Origin: an uncultured Streptosporangiaceae bacterium
GTDB lineage: Bacteria; Actinomycetota; Actinomycetes; Streptosporangiales; Streptosporangiaceae
Reading direction: 5' to 3'
Assembly (NCBI GenBank): GCA_964250865.1
Contig: CAXUJF010000006.1
Coordinates: forward strand, 1-39,061
Length of the DNA stretch: 39,061 bases
Part shown: piece by piece, positions 2,691 to 34,692 of the stretch
How positions within the stretch are numbered: the first letter of the stretch is position 1
Layout: the number at the start of each line of letters is the position of its first letter
Notes under the pieces: generated by a model
The model's database searches: none
What the model was told of the DNA's origin: nothing
The model's input: the letters and a program-made list of their open reading frames with translations, nothing else
Translations under genes and position numbers: made by a program

Positions 2691-3976
2691 CCACGACCAC
2701 CGTGCCCGACTGGCGCGAGAACAGGCGGCAGGACCGCCTCGCGGACGCAAGGATCGCCCGTGAGCGCGACGAGGCCCGCGCACAGGCCAGCCTTGCGCAG
2801 CAGCGCCTCAACGCTGAGCTGCGGGGCGAGGCCGAGGCGCAGCGCCGCGCCGAGCATGTCGCCGCCAAACTGGCGCGCGGCGAACGCTGGGCAGCGCGCC
2901 GGGCATGGGTGGCCGCGCACCTGGCCGACCTCGTTTTTGCGCCCGTGATCGTCATTCCCGGCGTGCTCGCCTGGTCGGCCATGGGCGCGTTCGGAGAGCA
3001 GCTGTTCGGCGTCGTCGGCCTCGGCCTGCCCGCCGTCAGCGAAGGCGCCATGTGGGTGTTTGAGATGCGGAACGCCTACGTGAGCCAGCACTACCCGGAC
3101 AGGCCGGTTTGGCACCTGCGCCTCGGTGCCTGGGTGTTCACGGCGGTTGGCGCCGCGCTCAACTTCCTGCACGGCCTGACCGCCATCCCCGGCAGCGACC
3201 GCCCGCACGGCGTCACGGTCGGCCTGGTCATGGCGCTCATCTCGGCCGCGGGCATGGTCGCGCACCAGCTCGTCAAGACTGGCCCCAAGCGCACCCGTGC
3301 GCAGCGTGCCGCCGCCCGCCGCGAGGACCGTGCCCGCCGCGCTGCGATCCGCTCGGCGCCGGTCGACCTGGACGACGACGGCACCGCCCACGTCATGCTC
3401 GAGCCGGTCACCGTCCAGCTCGGCCGCAAGCGCGGCCGGACAGTCTTGACCGTGCTGGACGAGGCCGAGCCGGTGGCCCCGGCAGACACGGCTGACCGGA
3501 GCGACGACGTGGACGAAATCGGACGCCAGGTGGCCGAGCAGCTCGCGCTCGCGCTAGCCAACACTGACCGCATAGCCGCGATCCTGCGCCCGTACCGGGA
3601 CACCGCCGAGCAGCAAAGCGCCGCGCGTGGCGACACTGCCTCAGCCATTCCCGACGAGCCACGGCCGGACGCTGAAAACGCCAGCGAGCCCGAGATCAAG
3701 CCCGAGACCGAAGCCGACCCCGCACCGGACATCGAGCAGGAGCTAGACACGGCCACCGTGCCCAACCCGCGCCGACCGGCCAGCAGGCGGCCGAGTGGCC
3801 ACCGCCGGACTCGCAAGCTGACCACGGCCGAGGTGCGGCGGCGGATCGCCGCCGCCGAGCCGGGGACAAGCAACGCCGACCTGGCCAAGGCAACCGGCCG
3901 GTCAGAGCGCACCGTCCGCCGCCTGCGGAACGAGGCCACGCCGGAACTGGCCACCGCAGGCCGGGAAGGGGGTTGA
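2687..3976 (+). CDS. DUF2637-like membrane protein with C-terminal HTH (Spd-like)
   Basis: GTG at 2687 overlaps the upstream stop (GTGA). N-terminal charged coiled coil, four hydrophobic helices (VFAPVIVIPGVLAW, FGVVGLGLPAV, LGAWVFTAVGAALNFL, VGLVMALISAAGMVA), C-terminal HTH ADLAKATGRSERTVRRL. Confidence 0.7.
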   Translation: MTTTTVPDWRENRRQDRLADARIARERDEARAQASLAQQRLNAELRGEAEAQRRAEHVAAKLARGERWAARRAWVAAHLADLVFAPVIVIPGVLAWSAMGAFGEQLFGVVGLGLPAVSEGAMWVFEMRNAYVSQHYPDRPVWHLRLGAWVFTAVGAALNFLHGLTAIPGSDRPHGVTVGLVMALISAAGMVAHQLVKTGPKRTRAQRAAARREDRARRAAIRSAPVDLDDDGTAHVMLEPVTVQLGRKRGRTVLTVLDEAEPVAPADTADRSDDVDEIGRQVAEQLALALANTDRIAAILRPYRDTAEQQSAARGDTASAIPDEPRPDAENASEPEIKPETEADPAPDIEQELDTATVPNPRRPASRRPSGHRRTRKLTTAEVRRRIAAAEPGTSNADLAKATGRSERTVRRLRNEATPELATAGREGG

Positions 3977-4869: not shown

Positions 4870-5228
4870 CGGCGCCGACCGTTGCCAAGCCGGACAGCTG
4901 GGTCATGGAAGACGCCGCGTTTGCCGACGCCGACCGCAGGACCGCCCGGCGCAAGGCCCAGTGGGACTACCTGGACGATCTGACCGACAGCATGTCGGTC
5001 GTGCGCGAGGCGCGCCCCAACCCGTTCCATCAGGATCACTGGGGCTACAACGTGGCCGGGGACGTCCTGGCCTACCTCTGCCGCCAGCACAAGGAAGTCG
5101 CCGCCGAGATCCTGGCCTACCTGGAGATGACCGCCGACCAGATCGACAACACCGCCGACGAGTTCGGCACCGGCCTTATGGATGACATCACCGAGATTAT
5201 GCGCAAGCGCGAGGGCGGTGCCCAGTGA
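4866..5228 (+). CDS. hypothetical protein
   Basis: 120-aa ORF with coupled overlaps at 4866 and 5225. Confidence 0.65.
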   Translation: MTAPTVAKPDSWVMEDAAFADADRRTARRKAQWDYLDDLTDSMSVVREARPNPFHQDHWGYNVAGDVLAYLCRQHKEVAAEILAYLEMTADQIDNTADEFGTGLMDDITEIMRKREGGAQ

Positions 5229-5896
5229 CCGCCGTTGAGGAACGTCCGGTCATCGTGGCCACACAGGACGAGGCCATCGCCGACTATCACCGCACCAGCA
5301 TCCGCAAGCTTGAGGTCATCATTGACCAGAAGTTGGCCGCGCTGCGGCATCACGTGACCGAGCTCGAACGGTGGGACGCCGAATCGTTCGCCGCCGCCCT
5401 GCGGCTGCTGATGACCGGCCTCATGGCCAAAGTGCCCGGCGGCGATGCGACCGGCACTCAAGCGGCAGCGAGCCTCGTCGAGCACTTCGCCGACAGCGAC
5501 GATCCGCGGCGGCTCGGCGCGGACGTGGCGCGGTTCTTCGCGAGTGCCAAGCTGCCCGACTGCGCCGACGAGAGCGAGGACTGCGGCGCGTGCGCCGACT
5601 GCGATTTCTGGCTCATCCGCAGCCGGTACGACGACCCGCAAGGCGATGACGTGCAGGCGATTCTTGCTCAGCTGGCGGCCAACCGGCGGCGGCTGTACGA
5701 CGCAGGCGTTCCGCGCCCCGAGTGGGTCACGTTCCCGCGCGAGCTGATCGCCCAGGACGAGGCCCGCGCGACCGAGCTGCAGCGCGAAATCCTTGAGCGC
5801 GAAACCGAGCTGGGGCGACTCGCCGCACGTTGGCCCGCGCCGCACGCGAGGCTCTACGCCACGGGCGGCAAGGGCGGTCAGGCGGCGGCCAAATGA
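5225..5896 (+). CDS. hypothetical protein (CxxCxxC motif, C-terminal coiled coil)
   Basis: 223-aa ORF with a GTGA overlap upstream and an ATGA overlap downstream. Confidence 0.65.
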   Translation: MTAVEERPVIVATQDEAIADYHRTSIRKLEVIIDQKLAALRHHVTELERWDAESFAAALRLLMTGLMAKVPGGDATGTQAAASLVEHFADSDDPRRLGADVARFFASAKLPDCADESEDCGACADCDFWLIRSRYDDPQGDDVQAILAQLAANRRRLYDAGVPRPEWVTFPRELIAQDEARATELQREILERETELGRLAARWPAPHARLYATGGKGGQAAAK

Positions 5897-6342: not shown

Positions 6343-6660
6343 ATGCCGCCATGGGGTGAGCCGAAGCCGCGCGATCCGGCCAAGGCCAGGGCGAAGCGTC
6401 TCAAGGCCAAGCGCAACGAAGCGGACGAGCAGCTGTTCAATCAGCACAACCCGCGCGAGGCGTTCAACATCGCCACGCGTGCGCTGCAGGCCGAGGCTTC
6501 CGCCGCGCACCGCAGCAACGAGCTCGCCGGGCACCGGAGCTATGCCTACTTGATGGCCGCGCTGTTCGACATGGCCGAGAGCGTGGCGAAGGGCTGGCGG
6601 CCGACCGACGCCGACCTCAAGAGCGTCGGGCTGAACGTCCAGCGCACGGCCGAGGCATAG
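6343..6660 (+). CDS. hypothetical basic protein
   Basis: ATG at 6343, 9 nt after GAGAGGGG. 105 aa with a Lys/Arg-rich N-terminus. Confidence 0.6.
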   Translation: MPPWGEPKPRDPAKARAKRLKAKRNEADEQLFNQHNPREAFNIATRALQAEASAAHRSNELAGHRSYAYLMAALFDMAESVAKGWRPTDADLKSVGLNVQRTAEA

Positions 6661-7517: not shown

Positions 7518-7840
7518 CCACCATCAGCGATAGGGAAGGAACCGAGGGAAGGAACCTCGGCGAGTGCCGTTCCGCCGAACCCATCCGGGCAGGCTCGCGT
7601 GTGCGCGTGAGAGGCGAGGAAGTTCCCTTGCCGACTTCCCTGCCGCCGAGGGCCCGCGGCGAGTGCCTCGGCCTGGTGCTGCACTCCGCGGTGACGGTCG
7701 ACGACAGCGGCGCTGTTCACGCCGACGTCTGGACGGGACCGTGCCCGTGCGGCGGCATCGCCGGGGCACACCCGAGGGAAGTTCCCCGGCCTCCCGCGCG
7801 AGGGCGGGCGCGACCGCATTGGATCCTCGCGCCTCGCTAG
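7514..7840 (+). CDS. doubtful ORF overlapping a GGGAAG-box repeat region
   Basis: ATGA coupling at 7514, but mixed codon bias and embedded direct/inverted repeats; it may be regulatory DNA. Confidence 0.3.
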   Translation: MTTISDREGTEGRNLGECRSAEPIRAGSRVRVRGEEVPLPTSLPPRARGECLGLVLHSAVTVDDSGAVHADVWTGPCPCGGIAGAHPREVPRPPARGRARPHWILAPR

Positions 7841-21042: not shown

Positions 21043-21386
21043 GTGTCACCGCGCACCTGGTAGAGACTTGGACGCAAGAAAGGACTTGCCGGTACGGTCT
21101 CGGGGCCTACATAACCGGTTGACGGGTGGTAGACCCTATGCCCTAGTTCGACCCAGGCGGCGTAAGTTCGCCCGCCTGCGCCGCCGGTCGCGGACACGAT
21201 GAGCGTGTGACCGTTCAGGTGGTGCTCAATCGAATCCCGCAGCTCGCCCGTCTCCACCGGGCAGTAACGCTGAGCGTCCCCGGCGATCTGCGGGCCGAGC
21301 TTGGTCTCAAACAGCCGGTCAGTAGCCGCGTGGACGTTCTCAAGCCAGTCGGCGCGCATCTGCACCCGGCCCACCCGGCGGCTCAT
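21039..21386 (-). CDS. HK97 gp10-family head-tail adaptor-like protein
   Basis: ATG at 21386 overlaps the XRE stop (ATGA); its own stop overlaps the TMP start. Motifs PVETGELRDSI, YAAWVELG and SPFLRPS are typical of the gp10 family. Confidence 0.7.
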   Translation of the reverse strand: MSRRVGRVQMRADWLENVHAATDRLFETKLGPQIAGDAQRYCPVETGELRDSIEHHLNGHTLIVSATGGAGGRTYAAWVELGHRVYHPSTGYVGPETVPASPFLRPSLYQVRGDT

Positions 21387-21724
21387 GCAGCGGCCCCAGA
21401 GGCGGCAACGGCGGTTCGCGCGCGGGTTCGGTGGGCTGCGGCCTCGGCGCGCAGCTGCCGTATGTAGTCCTGGGCCCACTCGGGAAGATCCGCCAGCGCG
21501 CCCAGCTCGGGACCAGCCGGGGCGTTCGCGTCCATGAAATCGCTGATCTGGGCGCCGAGCGCCTCGGCGAGCGCGAACGCGGTATTGACGCCAGGCGTCA
21601 TGCGGCCCTGCTCATACCGGGTGAGCGTGCCGACTGTGATGCCGCTGATGACGGCGAGCTGCTCGCGGGTCAATCCGCGCGTGGTGCGCGCCTCGGCGAG
21701 CTTGTGACCGGCGAACCTGGCCAT
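21383..21724 (-). CDS. XRE-family HTH regulator heading the operon
   Basis: LAEARTTRGLTREQLAVISGITVGTLTRYEQGRMTP is a canonical Cro/C1 HTH. Confidence 0.8.
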   Translation of the reverse strand: MARFAGHKLAEARTTRGLTREQLAVISGITVGTLTRYEQGRMTPGVNTAFALAEALGAQISDFMDANAPAGPELGALADLPEWAQDYIRQLRAEAAAHRTRARTAVAASGAAA

Positions 21725-22024: not shown

Positions 22025-22105
22025 CAGTTGTGCTTTTGCTGGCGAGTCGCTCGCACTCCCGGTAACCGCTCCGTACAGTTGTGCTTATGAGTAAAAGCAC
22101 AACTA
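22025..22105. promoter_or_regulatory. lox/FRT-like site: 10-bp inverted arms with an 8-bp spacer, plus a third direct copy
   Basis: AGTTGTGCTT (22077-86), spacer ATGAGTAA, AAGCACAACT (22095-104). Direct copy CAGTTGTGCTTTT at 22025-37. The spacer contains the recombinase ATG. Confidence 0.5.
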
Positions 22106-22740
22106 GACGCTTCGGATCGGCTCCCGGGCAGGCTCCGGCGAACAAGGGCCGGAAGTTCCGGGCCCAGGTACTCACCCGCGGTGAGGCCGAGGCGCTTATC
22201 GGGGCCTGCTCGGCGACCTCGAGGACGGGAGTGCGTAACCGGGCGCTGATCGTCGTGCTGTGGCGCGGTGGCCTGCGCATCGCCGAGGCGCTCGCGCTGG
22301 CGGTCGCCGACGTCGAGCCCGGGCGCGGCACGGTGCGCGTGATGGACGGCAAGGGCGGCAAGCCCCGGACGGTCGGCCTTGACCCGGGCGCGATGGCGAC
22401 CGTACAGCGGTGGATAGACATGCGCCGGGCGGCAGGCGGACGTCGCGGGCCGGTGTTCTGCACACTCGCCGGGGATCCGCTCTCGCCTCAGTACGTGCGG
22501 GCGATGCTCGCGCGCCTCGCCGACCGGGCCGGTGTCGACAAGCGCGTCGCGCCTCACCAGTTGCGCCACACGCTCGCGGCCGAGATGGTGGCCGAGGGCG
22601 TGCCCATGCCAATCATCCGGGACCAGCTCGGGCATAGCAGCTTGGCGGTCACTGACAGGTATCTGCGGGACGTGGCACCAGGCGAGGTGATTGCTGCGAT
22701 GCAGCGACGGGAGTGGGCCGAGCCGGGGCGGCAAGCGTGA
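22087..22740 (+). CDS. Short tyrosine recombinase (catalytic domain only)
   Basis: 217 aa. All catalytic signatures are present: GGLRIAE (R), GKGGKPRTV (K), HQLRHT (HxxR), LGHSSLAVTDRY (H..Y). There is no N-terminal core-binding domain. Confidence 0.85.
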   Translation: MSKSTTRRFGSAPGQAPANKGRKFRAQVLTRGEAEALIGACSATSRTGVRNRALIVVLWRGGLRIAEALALAVADVEPGRGTVRVMDGKGGKPRTVGLDPGAMATVQRWIDMRRAAGGRRGPVFCTLAGDPLSPQYVRAMLARLADRAGVDKRVAPHQLRHTLAAEMVAEGVPMPIIRDQLGHSSLAVTDRYLRDVAPGEVIAAMQRREWAEPGRQA

Positions 22741-22821
22741 CAACCTGCACCGCGCCAACTACGACGGAGTTGGTCGGCGCGGCCGGGTGAACCGAGCCGG
22801 ACACGTAAGTCGCAAGTAGGC

Positions 22822-23238
22822 TCAGGGCAAGCGCACGAAAAACTGGATGCTGGCCGTCTCTTTTCCGTCGACGTCCAACTGCCAGACATACGTTGCGCCT
22901 TGCTTAAGCGGCATAGGTCCCAGGTTGACGGCGAAGGAGGCGCCCAGGGTCGACGCGCCATCCCATCCGGCAGGTTCCTGCATTTCGATCTGCCCTGATA
23001 TCTCAACCCGCTGCACTCCCCCGATGCCTGGCACCTCTACCACCTGACCTGATGGATCAAGCAGTCGGATTGCAACGACAATCGGGGAACCGAGACGATC
23101 AGGGGGGACCTGCAGGAAGGCGACAACCCCCTGCGGGGCCGGATCTGGCCCTGTGAATGCCCAGCCTGCTCCGAGCATATGAACTTTGCCGGAGGAGTCT
23201 GCCTCCGCGAAGTCACAGAGGACCAACGTCGCTTGCAT
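22822..23238 (-). CDS. hypothetical beta-rich protein (DUF6941-like pattern)
   Basis: 138-aa ORF. The start overlaps the upstream stop (TGATG). The family call rests on my recollection of the N-terminal L.L.D.A......GK...LG pattern. Confidence 0.6.
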   Translation of the reverse strand: MQATLVLCDFAEADSSGKVHMLGAGWAFTGPDPAPQGVVAFLQVPPDRLGSPIVVAIRLLDPSGQVVEVPGIGGVQRVEISGQIEMQEPAGWDGASTLGASFAVNLGPMPLKQGATYVWQLDVDGKETASIQFFVRLP

Positions 23239-23669
23239 CAGGTTTTGGCCCGAAGTGCGCTAGGTGAGAAGAAGGTTCTCACACGTCCCGTCGTTGGCGT
23301 CGGCAGCAATAGGAAGCCCTTGGTCTGGACCGTTTGGCGGCTGACGCCTGACGTTTCAGACCCCTGTGCCGGCATGCGCTCATCCAGCTCAACTGCAGGA
23401 TCTAGGTAGTCGTTAAGAGCTTCTCTCACCAACTGCTTGGTCTCGTACAGACTAGGACCTGATACCTCGAAGCCCTTCAGACTGGCTGAGGTCGCGTGAA
23501 ACTTCCCGTCGACGTATCGGTAAACAACGATGATTTTGCGAGGTGGGCGCTTCAGGTCAGCGGGCTCAGCCGCGTCCCACATTGCGGCGGCATCTTCCCA
23601 GCTAGGTTCTGGCTCAGCAGCGCTCTGTCGCCGCTCGTGCACGTCCATATCCTCCACAACGTCCATCAT
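23238..23669 (-). CDS. HicB-like (UPF0150 fold) protein, possible antitoxin
   Basis: KIIVVYRYVDGKFHATSASLKGFEVSGPSLYETKQLVREALNDYL matches the HicB N-terminal domain pattern. The C-terminal tail is of low quality. Confidence 0.5.
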   Translation of the reverse strand: MMDVVEDMDVHERRQSAAEPEPSWEDAAAMWDAAEPADLKRPPRKIIVVYRYVDGKFHATSASLKGFEVSGPSLYETKQLVREALNDYLDPAVELDERMPAQGSETSGVSRQTVQTKGFLLLPTPTTGRVRTFFSPSALRAKT

Positions 23670-23701
23670 GCCTCGGCTAAGTCCCGGTCGACCAGTACTG
23701 G

Positions 23702-24046
23702 TTACTCGATCGTCATCGCTGTCCGAAGCACGAAGGTGCCCTCATTTTCGTCGTTGGGGTTCAGAGGGTCCATAAAGGCGGTCACCGGCCGTCCCGCATA
23801 GGTAGTGCCCCTTGCCATCACACGGCGCCCGTTCTTCTGGTCTTCGACCCACCTCGCCTCGGCGTCCCTAGCGAGCAGCACGGCCTCTCGTACCTCATCG
23901 CCAGTCAGCCAGTGGTTCTCCTTCTGCCTGATCTTGGCTTCGACCGCAGGTGGGATGTCGAGACGCGCGATCACCACCTCGGCCATAGCTTGCCAGGCTA
24001 GCGGGCCATCGGTGCGGACGGTCAGACTTCGGCTCTGCCTCTTCAT
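23702..24046 (-). CDS. hypothetical protein (weak BrnT/DUF497-like pattern, possible toxin)
   Basis: ATG at 24046 behind GGAAGGGG. AKIRQKENHWLTGDEVREAV....GRRVMARGTTYAGRPVTAF resembles the BrnT-type layout (weak). Confidence 0.45.
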   Translation of the reverse strand: MKRQSRSLTVRTDGPLAWQAMAEVVIARLDIPPAVEAKIRQKENHWLTGDEVREAVLLARDAEARWVEDQKNGRRVMARGTTYAGRPVTAFMDPLNPNDENEGTFVLRTAMTIE

Positions 24047-24169
24047 GCCCCTTCCGGGGCTAAAACAGCTAGTCACGCATATACACATCGGCAGCACGCT
24101 GACGAAGCCGCGAAGCACAGCCAGGGCGACCCTTCCGGAAGCCTGTCTTCAGGGCTCTGCCGCCTCAGC

Positions 24170-24388
24170 CTATGCTCGCGAAATAGTAAATCCCCGCTGC
24201 TCACAGTCTTGCTGGACTTCCTCAAGGCGATACACGGCGTTCTCGGCAACGCCCCCTCGATGGGTGATGGTCACATACGAGTCGTCGTACTCCTCGTGGC
24301 CGCGGCGTCCGGCGTACTGCAGGACCCTCATCGGATCGCGCGCCTCAAAACGCTCACCACGCTCAAGATCGTTAAGGTTGACCGCCAT
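24170..24388 (-). CDS. small hypothetical protein
   Basis: ATG at 24388 within ORF 24170..24445. Its start codon shares the CCATGG at 24385-90 with the divergent ParB-like gene. Confidence 0.35.
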   Translation of the reverse strand: MAVNLNDLERGERFEARDPMRVLQYAGRRGHEEYDDSYVTITHRGGVAENAVYRLEEVQQDCEQRGFTISRA

Positions 24389-24800
24389 GGCCGTCAAAGT
24401 AGCTGACTCCAACCCTGGTGATGGGGATTTCGAAGGGCTCGGCACTGTCCGTAGGTGTGACGCTCACTGTGGTCGTCACGTGATGGTCAAGGTTGCCGTA
24501 ATTGCCGACTGGCTCCATGGGAACACCGACGCCGACCTTGCCTTGGTCCGGGAGTGGGCTGCTCGAGCTGACCTCTGGAAACCCGGGCACTGTCGCCTAA
24601 ACCACGATGAGCTGGTCTCAAGGATCAGGACGGCAGGCGGCGTTGATTGCGAACATGCGCTGAAAGCGACGGTGCCAGTTACGGGCGTCATCAAGCTCAA
24701 TGATGGCGTACACCGATACGCGGTGGCGGTGGAACTTGGACTTGCCACTGTCCCGGTAAAGCTGTCGACTAACACTGAATCCCCTATGGCTTGGCCGTGA
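24387..24800 (+). CDS. ParB/Srx-fold nuclease-like protein, copy inside the island
   Basis: C-terminal 137 aa of ORF 23805..24800. The start is fixed by homology to 67..483 (MAVKVADS vs MADNVAGS). Contains the DGVHRYAVAVELGL motif. Confidence 0.7.
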   Translation: MAVKVADSNPGDGDFEGLGTVRRCDAHCGRHVMVKVAVIADWLHGNTDADLALVREWAARADLWKPGHCRLNHDELVSRIRTAGGVDCEHALKATVPVTGVIKLNDGVHRYAVAVELGLATVPVKLSTNTESPMAWP

Positions 24801-24810
24801 CTAGCGCTGA

Positions 24811-25011
24811 TCAGCCCCGCGTCTTCCCATCGCGAATCTTGGCGATGTACTCCTTCGTCCAGCCTGCGTGACGTGCGATGCGTGACGGCCCGCGGCCGTC
24901 GCTGAGCGCTTCCCTGATCAGCTTCATGAGATCAGCGTGCGCGGTATCGAGCCGCCGCCTGGCCTGCTCTAGCTTGCGGTCGAGTTCGTCGGGTTCGTCT
25001 GCCTCTGCCAT
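24811..25011 (-). CDS. small HTH DNA-binding protein
   Basis: 66 aa: a helical N-terminus followed by PSRIARHAGWTKEYIAKIR (HTH). Same architecture as 34298..34498. Confidence 0.6.
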   Translation of the reverse strand: MAEADEPDELDRKLEQARRRLDTAHADLMKLIREALSDGRGPSRIARHAGWTKEYIAKIRDGKTRG

Positions 25012-25021
25012 AGGGCCATAC

Positions 25022-25091
25022 TAACTTAGTTAACGAACAAAGTTGACTCGATGCGTCTGGCAAGCTAACTTTGTTATTGAACAAAGTTGAC
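25022..25091. promoter_or_regulatory. Divergent promoter/operator region with three AACAAAGTT boxes
   Basis: GAACAAAGTTGAC at 25035 and 25079. Inverted AACTTTGTT at 25066. Palindrome TAACTTAGTTA at 25022. TTGACT (25043) with TAACTT 17 nt downstream looks like a -35/-10 pair. Confidence 0.5.
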
Positions 25092-25107
25092 GCTATGGGG
25101 GGACGAG

Positions 25108-25485
25108 ATGACCAGTACGAACGGCGCTGAGCGCAACGAGCAGCGGTGCCTCCGCTGCGGACGCAAGATCACTGCGGCAGCGAGCCGCGCGGCGGGCATG
25201 GGCCGCACCTGCCAGGCCCGCGTCAGGGATGCGCTCGCCACGGCCGTGCGGCCCGGCGTCAAGGCCGAGCAGGTCGCCAAGGCCGTCGAGCTCATCGCGC
25301 AGGGCGGCGTCGTCCCCCCCTCCCGGCCGGCCGTGTTCCGCACGGTCGGCAGCGCCGGAGACGTCATCTACCTCACCCACGCGGCGACCTGCACGTGCCC
25401 GGCCGGGCTGCGCGCGCGGCGTTGCTACCACTCAGTTGCCGTCGAGCTGATGACCACCGCGGCGACCATCCAGCGGGCCGCGTGA
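25108..25485 (+). CDS. SWIM zinc-finger protein
   Basis: ATG at 25108 behind GGGGGGACGAG. N-terminal RCLRCGRKI...GMGRTC zinc-ribbon-like segment. C-terminal CTCPAGLRARRCYH fits the SWIM signature CxCx(n)CxH. Confidence 0.7.
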   Translation: MTSTNGAERNEQRCLRCGRKITAAASRAAGMGRTCQARVRDALATAVRPGVKAEQVAKAVELIAQGGVVPPSRPAVFRTVGSAGDVIYLTHAATCTCPAGLRARRCYHSVAVELMTTAATIQRAA

Positions 25486-32167: not shown

Positions 32168-32842
32168 GTGGACGCGGACGAGGAACAAGAGACGAACGGG
32201 GACGGCGACGGCCAAGACCGGCCCCACCAGCACGTGACCGTCAATCAGATCGTGGCCGACAACATGGCGTATTGGCGTAAGGTCGCCGGCCTGACACAGG
32301 AGCAGCTCGGCGAGCGTCTTGGGTGGAGCAACGTCGTCGTATCTGCGGCTGAGCGATCGGCGCACAGCAACCGGCCGCGGTCGTTCACGGTTGATGACCT
32401 TGTGAATCTCGCCATCGCGCTCGGCGTTCCGCTGGCTGCCCTTTTTCTGCCGCCCACTGACGACGGCATGCCTGCCGACTTCATGTTCTCGACCGGCATG
32501 GGGGATGGAAACATGGGCGGTCTGCTGCTGCTGGTCCTAGCGGACGACGGCAGCGATAGCGATGTCATGGACGCTTACCGCAGGCGCCTCGGCGTGGCGG
32601 TTAACGGCTACCTCGACCGGGGCTTGGCCGAGCAGATCGCCAAGATGCTGCGCGACCCGACCAGCGCCGAGATGAACGCCGACCGGATCGCACGGCTCCG
32701 CTTGCACCAAGCCGAGCTTGAGTCGACGTTCACGGCGGCCAACACCGCCGCCCTGACCGCTGCTGCTCAGTTTGGCGAGATAGCCGACGTCCTTGAGAAG
32801 TGGGACGCGGAACACGGCGACGACCAGGAGGTGACCGAATGA
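32168..32842 (+). CDS. XRE-family HTH regulator upstream of int
   Basis: GTG at 32168 within ORF 32045..32842. IVADNMAYWRKVAGLTQEQLGERLGWSNVVVSAAERS is an HTH. The stop overlaps the int start (ATGA). Confidence 0.7.
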   Translation: MDADEEQETNGDGDGQDRPHQHVTVNQIVADNMAYWRKVAGLTQEQLGERLGWSNVVVSAAERSAHSNRPRSFTVDDLVNLAIALGVPLAALFLPPTDDGMPADFMFSTGMGDGNMGGLLLLVLADDGSDSDVMDAYRRRLGVAVNGYLDRGLAEQIAKMLRDPTSAEMNADRIARLRLHQAELESTFTAANTAALTAAAQFGEIADVLEKWDAEHGDDQEVTE

Positions 32843-34287
32843 GGGGATCGGTCTTCCCGCTGTGCTTCTGCCGCGACCCCCAGACGGGCAAGGCGCTCGG
32901 CAAGAAGTGTCCCAAGTTCGGCAAGAAGGGGCACGGTAAGTGGTACTTCCGGTACAGCGCGCCAGCGGGCGCAGACGGCAAGCGCCGTCAGCCGAGGATC
33001 GGGCCGTTCGACACGAAGACGGTGGCTGAGGAGGAGCTGACCGCGGCGCTCGCACGGATCGCGGGCGGAGGCCAGGTGCACGACCGCTCGCTTCTGGTCG
33101 GTGCCTACCTGACCGCGTACGCGGCCGGGAAGCTGGACGTTAAGGCAAGCACGCTCGCGTCGATCCATGAGGCTGTCCGGCTGTACTGGATTCCGGCGCT
33201 CGGTCACCTGCGGCTCGTTGACCTGCGTGACCACCACGTCTCCGAGGCCGTGCGCGAGATGATGAAGATCAACCGGCCGCTACCGGAGGACGAGAAGCCG
33301 TCCGAGGTGCTCCGCCGGATGATCGCCGCCCGGGCCGACGATGTGCGCCGCGAGCTGCCGCCCGGCGAGAAGCGGCGCAAGAAATCGACCGTGCCGCTGT
33401 CACCGGCACGAATCGCGCTCATGTTCGCCGTTCTGCGTGCGGCACTCAACGACGCGGTGCCGGGCAAGATCGAGCACAACCCGTGTGCCACCGTCAAGCT
33501 GCCGAGGGTGGCCAAGGTCAAGCCGCTGCCCTGGACAGCGCCGCGCCTGGAGGGGTTCGGCAAGGCGCTCGCCAAACGGGTGTCGGCCGCCTTGGCAACC
33601 CGCGAGCTGACCATCGCCGAGCGCCAGGTGATATGGGGCGAGCCATCGCTACGACCGTCCCCGGTCATGGTCTGGATGCCCGCCCAGACCGGCGAGTTTC
33701 TCGACTTCATCGAGGGTGAGCGGCTGTTCGGACTGTTCTGCCTGGTCGCCTACTGCGGCTTGCGCCGGGACGAAGTGATCGGCCTCAAATGGGCCGAGGT
33801 CGACCTAGCCGAGGCAGTCGCATGGGTGCGCGAGACAGGGCACGGCGAGGGAACCAAGAGTGAGGCGGGGGTCCGTGCCGTGCCGCTCGCTGGGCCCGTG
33901 CTCGAGGCGCTCCGAGCATGGCGCAAGGTCCAGGCCGCCGACCAGCTCGCGTGGGGCCGTGACTGGGCAGACACCGACCTCGTGTTCACCCGCGAGGACG
34001 GTACGGCGGTACCGGGCCCGTGGGTGAGCACGAGGTTCGAGACACTCGCCTACCGGGCCGGCCTGCCGCCCGTCCGGTTCCACGACCTGCGGCACGGCGC
34101 CGCGAGCCTGGCCAAGGCCGCTGGGCTGGACTCCAAGTACATCGCCGCGCTTCTCGGCCACGCGCGCAGCTCGTTCACTGATGACGTGTACGTGCTGCTG
34201 TTCCCCGAGGTCGCCAACGCAGCTGCGGAAGCCGCCGCGGCGATTGTTCCTCGCCGGGGTATTGCTCAGAGCAGAGCAGATGTGTAG
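32839..34287 (+). CDS. int: Tyrosine integrase (pSAM2/phage-integrase family)
   Basis: 482 aa. CGLRRDEV (R), HDLRHGAAS (HxxR), LGHARSSFTDDVY (H..Y). Adjacent to the intact tRNA and attR. Confidence 0.9.
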   Translation: MRGSVFPLCFCRDPQTGKALGKKCPKFGKKGHGKWYFRYSAPAGADGKRRQPRIGPFDTKTVAEEELTAALARIAGGGQVHDRSLLVGAYLTAYAAGKLDVKASTLASIHEAVRLYWIPALGHLRLVDLRDHHVSEAVREMMKINRPLPEDEKPSEVLRRMIAARADDVRRELPPGEKRRKKSTVPLSPARIALMFAVLRAALNDAVPGKIEHNPCATVKLPRVAKVKPLPWTAPRLEGFGKALAKRVSAALATRELTIAERQVIWGEPSLRPSPVMVWMPAQTGEFLDFIEGERLFGLFCLVAYCGLRRDEVIGLKWAEVDLAEAVAWVRETGHGEGTKSEAGVRAVPLAGPVLEALRAWRKVQAADQLAWGRDWADTDLVFTREDGTAVPGPWVSTRFETLAYRAGLPPVRFHDLRHGAASLAKAAGLDSKYIAALLGHARSSFTDDVYVLLFPEVANAAAEAAAAIVPRRGIAQSRADV

Positions 34288-34598: not shown

Positions 34599-34660
34599 CG
34601 CGCGGAGGCTCGGGGATTTGAACCCCGGATGGGCGGTAAACCCAAACCGCATTAGCAGTG
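34599..34660. repeat. attR: 62-bp direct repeat inside the intact tRNA-Ser
   Basis: 62/62 identity with 599..660. Confidence 0.9.
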
Positions 34661-34692
34661 CGGCGCCATAGACCGGACTAGGCGAAGCCTCC
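34603..34692 (-). tRNA. tRNA-Ser (anticodon GCU), 90 nt, no encoded CCA
   Basis: Hand fold: acceptor GGAGGCT/AGCCTCC, anticodon stem CCGCA/TGCGG with loop CTGCTAA, long variable arm, T-arm CGGGG-TTCAAAT-CCCCG, discriminator G. Confidence 0.95.

Follow-up and report, generated by a model that had tools for sequence, protein, structure and literature searches.

Among described site-specific recombination systems, TnpI at the resolution site of transposon Tn4430 appears, by its arrangement, to be the closest functional analogue of the locus analyzed here. At that internal resolution site (IRS), crossover takes place in an inverted core, and resolution is imposed by neighboring direct repeats to which TnpI itself binds (PMC2847244). 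TnpI is a protein of 284 aa with a core-binding domain; two accessory repeats make up the rest of its site, and the system is part of a Tn3-family transposon that also encodes the TnpA transposase. In Tn5401, the site reportedly also overlaps the tnpI–tnpA promoter, which TnpI is said to repress. A recombination site that doubles as an operator is likewise found in Tn3 and gamma-delta, where res is also the operator of the resolvase gene, but these resolvases are serine recombinases of unrelated chemistry and site layout. Among tyrosine recombinases, XerS/difSL and XerH/difH each pair a single recombinase with a palindromic site next to its own gene; Xer proteins have a core-binding domain, are chromosomal, and are linked to FtsK. 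Cre/loxP (phage P1) and Flp/FRT are phage- or plasmid-borne systems for cyclization or dimer resolution, with inverted-arm sites around an 8-bp spacer, and FRT has a third arm. The Fim recombinases, which depend on IHF and Lrp, act at two sites to flip the 314-bp segment lying between them, and the pdif modules of Acinetobacter plasmids are sites without an adjacent recombinase gene that bracket cargo genes.

The stretch of DNA analyzed here, called the window throughout, comprises 39,061 nt from an uncultured Streptosporangiaceae bacterium and carries a ~34-kb phage-like integrated element inserted in tRNA-Ser(GCT). The element lies between two direct copies of a 62-bp sequence corresponding to the 3′ portion of this tRNA gene (~600–662 and ~34600–34662); ARAGORN calls a tRNA at both copies, and Rfam accepts the right copy only. 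Among its gene products are tail and tail-completion proteins, a tape-measure-like protein of 1,366 aa, and a Prim-Pol with a primase/helicase. An earlier reading made from the bare sequence (the sequence-only reading) had called the short recombinase gene the element's "second", and an arm-type integrase does lie beside the right repeat (Table 1); together with the tRNA-Ser repeats, this integrase would account for integration of the element. The short recombinase gene and its site are in the middle of the element, the site being intact and not split into attL and attR, and it is for this reason that the site is not considered the one used for element integration. Neither is the gene a chromosomal housekeeping gene at dif, since it sits inside the integrated element and its relatives lie on phage- or plasmid-like contigs.

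Table 1. Features of the short recombinase locus and its surroundings in the window
Feature	Coordinates	Strand	Basis or remark
Divergent Xre-type HTH gene	21383..21724	−	Pfam HTH_3; neighbor outside the conserved module
Direct-repeat accessory half-site (DR), CAGTTGTGCTTTT	22025..22037	+	roughly −62 to −50 relative to predicted transcription start
Predicted −10 hexamer, TACAGT (TAnnnT)	22074..22079	+	overlaps first 3 nt of IR-L; conservation in relatives
Left inverted arm (IR-L), AGTTGTGCTT	22077..22086	+	sequence reading, repeat finder
Central 8-bp spacer, ATGAGTAA	22087..22094	+	start codon, predicted leaderless transcription start, presumed crossover region
Right inverted arm (IR-R), AAGCACAACT	22095..22104	+	codons 3–6 (K-S-T-T)
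217-aa catalytic-domain-only, Xer-like tyrosine recombinase	22087..22740	+	Pfam, NCBIfam, PDB sequence search, model, fold search
495-aa arm-type integrase	32800–34287		adjoins right 62-bp repeat

The surroundings of the gene differ on its two sides. The Xre-type gene upstream is syntenic in a single relative (L296), with ParA, a serine integrase, or other genes in its place elsewhere; synteny by tblastx is noisy at high GC and was relied on for L296 alone. Downstream, a block of lower GC (~0.60) at ~22.8–25.2 kb holds five small minus-strand ORFs (22822–25011), one with DUF6941 and the others without a family, and PADLOC finds no defense genes in it. The low-GC block reported in the sequence-only reading is therefore present, but it lies downstream of the recombinase gene, whose own GC is 0.73. 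A protein with DUF6011 and a SWIM zinc finger is common to this element (25087–25485) and that of another relative (L297, 330–707). No transposase adjoins the recombinase gene in the window or in most relatives.

The site itself is a perfect 10-8-10 inverted repeat (22077–22104) with the ATG inside its spacer and a third copy of the half-site 51 bp upstream of the left arm, start to start. Direct sequence reading and a repeat finder (repeats D11, I10, and I15) confirm this layout, as it had been described earlier. Across the 39,061 bases of the window there are exactly three copies of the half-site 10-mer, clustered inside 80 bp, and no one-mismatch copy elsewhere. The significance of the site lies in this third copy and in its conservation, because the palindrome alone is not statistically unusual; eight distinct perfect 10-nt inverted repeats with spacers of 4–12 nt occur in the window, against ~1 expected from first-order Markov simulations of it. 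No Rfam family matches at the site. Likeness to loxP and FRT extends to the inverted arms and the 8-bp spacer, but loxP and FRT arms are 13 bp long (10–12 bp in the short-recombinase sites), neither site overlaps a start codon, and both Cre and Flp carry N-terminal DNA-binding domains. The analogy once drawn with the third arm of FRT is correct in that such an arm exists; it is otherwise loose, since the FRT arm is adjacent and the DR stands off by 51 bp (relatives have 41 or 71 bp) and is more like an accessory element.

Several further observations were made around the site. A genome scan for GTTGCGCTT-N8-AAGCGCAAC was dominated by a cyanobacterial repeat with no recombinase homolog nearby and was dismissed as coincidence: in these loci (L173–L292), GTTGCGCTT-TAGCGCTA-AAGCGCAAC is the core of a perfect ~40-bp hairpin (GGTWCGTW...WACGWACC), of which genomes of filamentous cyanobacteria (Nostoc, Floridaenema, Phormidium, and others) each carry many copies. 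A telomere-resolvase role was also rejected, the spacer not being palindromic and the element being integrated. Beginning 15 nt past the recombinase stop codon is a stem–loop, CCAACT-N7-AGTTGG (22755–22773), which re-employs the outer 5 nt of the half-site motif by chance; it may be a terminator, and the terminator scan is silent there. In a search of public reads, one run matched, with 6% of sampled words and coverage only at 23345–23495.

The protein encoded at this site has a single Pfam match, Phage_integrase (PF00589; residues 28–194, E = 2.6e-34), and its R-K-HxxR-H/W-Y set (R64, K89, H157, R160, H183, and Y192) is invariant across 25 homologs at 55–80% identity. An AlphaFold model built on 25 homologs (pLDDT 84.5) consists of a Xer-type catalytic domain with residues 1–30 disordered and no folded N-terminal domain. 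Pfam, the invariant residues, and the model thus agree with the earlier description of a short recombinase that has a complete catalytic set and lacks a core-binding domain. Fold and active site place the product in the tyrosine recombinase superfamily, with strand exchange itself as a prediction. The top fold matches are XerA, in first place, and XerH, and the nearest solved structures in PDB sequence and fold searches are an archaeal XerA and a XerC-like protein. Despite being nearest to the Xer group (XerS/difSL, XerH/difH, archaeal XerA) in sequence and fold, the protein differs from it in lacking ~85 N-terminal residues, in being carried on mobile elements, and in failing every Xer equivalog cut-off. 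Its alignment begins at position 86 of 263 in the NCBIfam XerA model and 105 of 295 in the XerC model, covering their C-terminal two-thirds, with 123 bits against a cut-off of 220 and 121 bits against a cut-off of 335, respectively; it reaches none of the NCBIfam family cut-offs tested. It has no notable sequence identity to TnpI.

In size, the protein is closer to FimB and FimE, which also consist of a catalytic domain only (~200 aa), and aligned end to end it is collinear with their models PRK09870/09871 (198–200 residues), query residues 27–194 falling on model positions 5–173 of 198. This raises the idea of a FimB/FimE-like invertase flipping a promoter segment, and DR and IR-R are indeed mutually inverted, with 15 nt that are 93% complementary (repeat I10). 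Such a function is nevertheless very improbable: NCBIfam invertase scores of 57–59 bits fall far under the cut-offs of 221–222, no full inverted site pair in the 39 kb encloses any segment that could be inverted, and the 59 bp from DR to IR-R are too short for a normal synapse.

Homologs of the short recombinase are numerous, with more than 1,800 matches, mostly from soil metagenomes, and a typical length of 205–235 aa among the best 120 of these; their source labels read only "XerD" or "tyrosine-type recombinase". The N-terminal tail keeps the motif M-x-K-S-[TAS]-T-x-R-L-G-S-x-P-G-Q-x-P-x-N-K-G. No relatives above 40% identity were found in GenBank phages, PLSDB plasmids, or IMG/VR, and a DNA-pattern scan of IMG/VR returned only unrelated low-GC matches.

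The layout of the site is retained together with the gene. Thirteen relatives at 59–80% identity could be read with their flanks, and 10 of them have the clean arrangement of DR, IR-L, an 8-nt spacer with ATG or GTG, and IR-R as codons 3–6. Clean loci are L086, L089, L227, L318, L090, L293, L294, L296, and L324–331, all with ATG apart from L318, in which the spacer begins with GTG; degenerate versions occur in L088, L297, and L339. All 16 actinobacterial sites share a spacer length of 8 nt, and a search of ±6–10 kb gives one site per element. The repeats also change together: the central base of the half-site switches among T, C, and A jointly in DR, IR-L, and IR-R, and codon 5 varies among ACA, GCA, and TCA in step with IR-L and DR. 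Repeat identity is 9.1/10 inside a locus versus 7.4–7.5/10 across loci, a similarity reached in none of 20,000 permutations in a test that takes no account of phylogenetic relatedness. DR and IR-L are mostly 51 bp apart; two loci have 71 bp and three distant relatives 41 bp, differences of whole helical turns that would keep the same helical face. Homology between loci starts ~3 nt ahead of DR and stops at the stop codon. The conserved unit is thus a compact recombinase-plus-site module of ~720 bp, in line with the self-contained module that had been proposed.

Beyond these relatives, the palindrome is absent from homologs at 41–51% identity, most of them from Solirubrobacterales. A set of homologs at ~50–54% identity (L010, L095–L100, L103, and L106), from one Solirubrobacteraceae MAG and untyped metagenome contigs, has a longer N-terminus, no palindrome, and another conserved upstream motif, GAGCCATGGAGGGCAAnCCATG.

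An account of why a start codon should lie within a recombination site is offered by the promoter. A TAnnnT hexamer stands exactly 7 nt ahead of the ATG or GTG in 10 of the 13 close relatives; direct reading of the window finds no Shine–Dalgarno sequence upstream of the ATG. In mycobacteria, (T)ANNNT serves as the −10 motif and is found between −6 and −13; roughly one transcript in four has no leader, and an ATG or GTG at the 5′ end is enough for translation (PMC6448022). The position of TAnnnT in the window agrees with both the −10 and the leaderless rules. Since an E. coli-type scan of the window gives no promoter there, the −10 call in the window is drawn from conservation. The exact 7-nt distance from hexamer to start codon suggests that the recombinase mRNA is probably leaderless, and leaderless transcription would in turn place the ATG inside the spacer. 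This is a simpler explanation of the ATG than the expression switch listed earlier among the possible roles, and in leadered relatives the palindrome lies upstream of the ribosome-binding site. These distant homologs (52–61% identity; other phyla or subclades) have DR and the palindrome ahead of a normal ribosome-binding site, and the promoter tool calls a sigma-70 promoter there (L093, L091, L007, and L337) whose −35 falls between DR and IR-L and whose −10 overlaps IR-L.

The conserved geometry is thus predicted to run DR, −35, IR-L with −10, a start point in the spacer, and IR-R, and the leaderless actinobacterial version appears to shift IR-R into the coding sequence. This promoter/operator geometry makes self-repression very likely. 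An autoregulatory operator, which the sequence-only reading had named as the simpler alternative, is accordingly strongly backed by the overlap of −10 and IR-L and by the predicted start in the spacer. Regulation might instead act on RNA, with a hairpin, or alternative pairing of IR-L:IR-R and DR:IR-R, controlling translation of a leadered transcript; a hairpin is predicted if the region is transcribed (z = −2.0). We regard this as most unlikely, because the conserved −10 sets the start inside the palindrome and the left arm, like DR, would be left out of the RNA. Sites also occur without any gene, and in L296 the central mismatch is G.G and not a wobble pair.

The strong case for an operator raises the possibility that the site is an operator only, and that the protein is a recombinase-derived repressor of its own promoter, and perhaps of others, in which recombination has been lost. 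Such a loss would suit the conserved promoter/operator geometry, the single site per element, and the missing core-binding domain. It is, in our judgment, unlikely, given that homologs at 55–80% identity all retain the six catalytic residues, the tyrosine nucleophile among them, and that self-regulation alone offers no selectable function. Further, two tripartite sites occur without a gene, in plasmid-like contigs (L001 and L003-A). Neither has a −10 box, TCCAGT standing in its place, and both are at positions unsuited to a promoter: after a ParA operon in L001 and between convergent genes in L003-A. These orphan sites suggest that sites are kept for something other than the recombinase promoter. 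The invariance of all catalytic residues, together with the orphan sites at non-promoter positions, argues that recombination activity has been retained alongside the operator role. L001 has backbone genes in common with the plasmids L324 and L089. One and the same IS (DDE_3) end is found within 140–350 bp of both orphan sites (L001, 4167–4292; L003, 5024–5060); it also flanks the recombinase module of L086 on both sides (3805–3924 and 6515–6639), where the IS elements are unrelated to the module.

The contexts of the gene-linked modules fit replicon maintenance. In L324–331, a TrwC-relaxase element, parB–parA is followed by a pair of parS-like palindromes, after which come the site, the recombinase gene, and an Endonuclease VII gene that overlaps it. 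SSB and ParA accompany the module in L089, a ParE-type toxin pair in L227 and L318, HicA in L297, and Fic and PemK in L296. Phage-like carriers include L293, L294, L296, L337, and the window, some with their own serine or tyrosine integrase. The parS-like sequence of L324 (~5740–5800) is a 16-bp palindrome, GTCTCCCATGGGAGAC, of which two copies lie downstream of parA and ahead of the site. In L324 (6645–7265), L294 (10644–11102), and L293 (6924–7382), the short recombinase gene is followed by one for Endonuclease_7 (PF02945). This recombinase–Endonuclease VII operon thus occurs in three independent contexts, plasmid and phage, with overlapping genes in two of the three, and Endonuclease VII may be the Holliday-junction-resolving partner of the short recombinase; the window contains no Endonuclease VII homolog. 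At the 3′ end of the recombinase gene, L088 (7859–10108) has perfect 53-bp direct repeats that bracket an SRPBCC gene, and a 2,076-bp tandem repeat runs into the contig end. In L296 (11551–11937), the recombinase gene is frameshifted and accompanied by a second partial copy (residues 88–217).

The observed architecture, its conservation, the co-variation of the repeats, the catalytic residues, and the contexts lead us to infer binding, repression, strand exchange, and a biological role of the following kind, which we hold with somewhat more confidence than doubt: a self-contained, autoregulated, TnpI/IRS-like resolution module, carried by actinobacterial mobile elements and idle in a single-copy prophage. 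Transcription would proceed from a promoter whose −10 box overlaps IR-L, and its first nucleotide would probably be the A of the ATG, so that the mRNA would have no leader. The product would be a Xer-like catalytic domain with a conserved, basic, disordered tail of 27 residues, and would bind three half-sites, two inverted about the 8-bp center and one direct copy five helical turns upstream. Bound there, it would mask both the −10 box and the start point, thereby repressing its own synthesis. Where two tripartite sites come to lie on one molecule—in replicon dimers, cointegrates, or tandem copies—the inverted pair would serve as the crossover core and the upstream DR as an accessory arm favoring resolution, in the manner of TnpI at the IRS of Tn4430. 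If the two sites are identical, their exchange would give the gene back. In an integrated, single-copy prophage, the module would be without a partner site, and only self-regulation would be expected.

The comparison with TnpI and its IRS is founded on a site that stands directly before the recombinase gene and combines an inverted core with a direct accessory repeat of the same motif. It is incomplete, in that the module has a single accessory repeat 41–71 bp off and a core on the start codon, with no adjoining transposase. Multimer resolution, one of the roles suggested earlier, is the best-supported recombination role, because relatives adjoin parAB–parS and toxin–antitoxin genes. Against a resolution module, integrative phages that package concatemers have no obvious need for dimer resolution, and several carriers are phage-like with an integrase of their own (the window, L294, and L337). 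Simple partner-site recombination is also a poor fit to the spacers, which are unequal between orphan and gene-linked sites. A recombinase without a core-binding domain may, in addition, need helper proteins.

It is conceivable that partner sites, orphan or IR-only, serve integration, docking, cassette capture, or gene on/off switching, whereby other circles are joined to the element or the gene is parted from its promoter. Orphan and IR-only sites do occur in Streptosporangiaceae MAGs: the contig L003 has a tripartite site (5197–5274) and an IR-only site (7789–7816), both without a recombinase gene, which lie 2.5 kb apart and bracket a multicopper oxidase gene, and the contig stops 184 bp beyond the second site. 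Several sites, including L003-B and L088, are at contig ends; the DNA downstream of the gene is variable and of lower GC; and any crossover in the spacer would, by the logic of the sequence, uncouple the −10 box from the ORF. We consider such use improbable all the same. Orphan and gene-linked spacers all differ, and the spacers of orphan-type sites (ACAGGCGA, AGGGGCCA, and TGACGCAA) differ from one another too. The single site of the window is intact and its 39 kb contain no other, so inversion, excision, and capture are impossible there, and the expression switch and cassette capture once proposed for this locus are not supported within the window. Captured cargo would be expected upstream, where the neighbor is syntenic with that of L296, whereas the variable, low-GC DNA is downstream; and integration of the element already has an explanation in the 495-aa integrase and its tRNA-Ser repeats.

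The paired sites of L003 resemble pdif modules in flanking a cargo gene. They differ in that pdif relies on host XerC/XerD, and L003 is the sole example, with two unequal spacers. A broader proposal takes up this resemblance: that the proteins form a previously undescribed, catalytic-domain-only, Xer-like family acting as a portable system of two parts, carried by phages, plasmids, and integrative elements of actinobacteria, with a tripartite site built into its own leaderless promoter. The recombinase would go no further than the first strand exchange, leaving the Holliday junction to be completed by Endonuclease VII, made from the same transcript, or by a resolvase of the host. Gene-less sites on other replicons or around cargo would act as points of docking or exchange, giving rise to pdif-like traffic of modules in Actinomycetota. 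We think this doubtful, and keep it at low probability on account of the paired sites of L003, the Endonuclease VII operon, and the 3′-end duplications of L088 and L296.

The TnpI/IRS-like resolution module remains our preferred reading, and the module is real, conserved, and previously uncharacterized. If it operates as proposed, it would represent a minimal tyrosine recombinase of ~215 aa without a core-binding domain, with a cognate site of ~80 bp. Such an enzyme would offer insight into site recognition without the usual clamp, and possibly a small orthogonal recombination tool for high-GC bacteria. For the annotation of actinobacterial mobile elements, these results set such "XerD" calls apart from chromosomal Xer proteins and true integrases. 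The locus further suggests how, at a leaderless promoter, a site for protein binding can be driven into the opening codons of the gene, coupling the evolution of a DNA site to that of the codons it overlaps.
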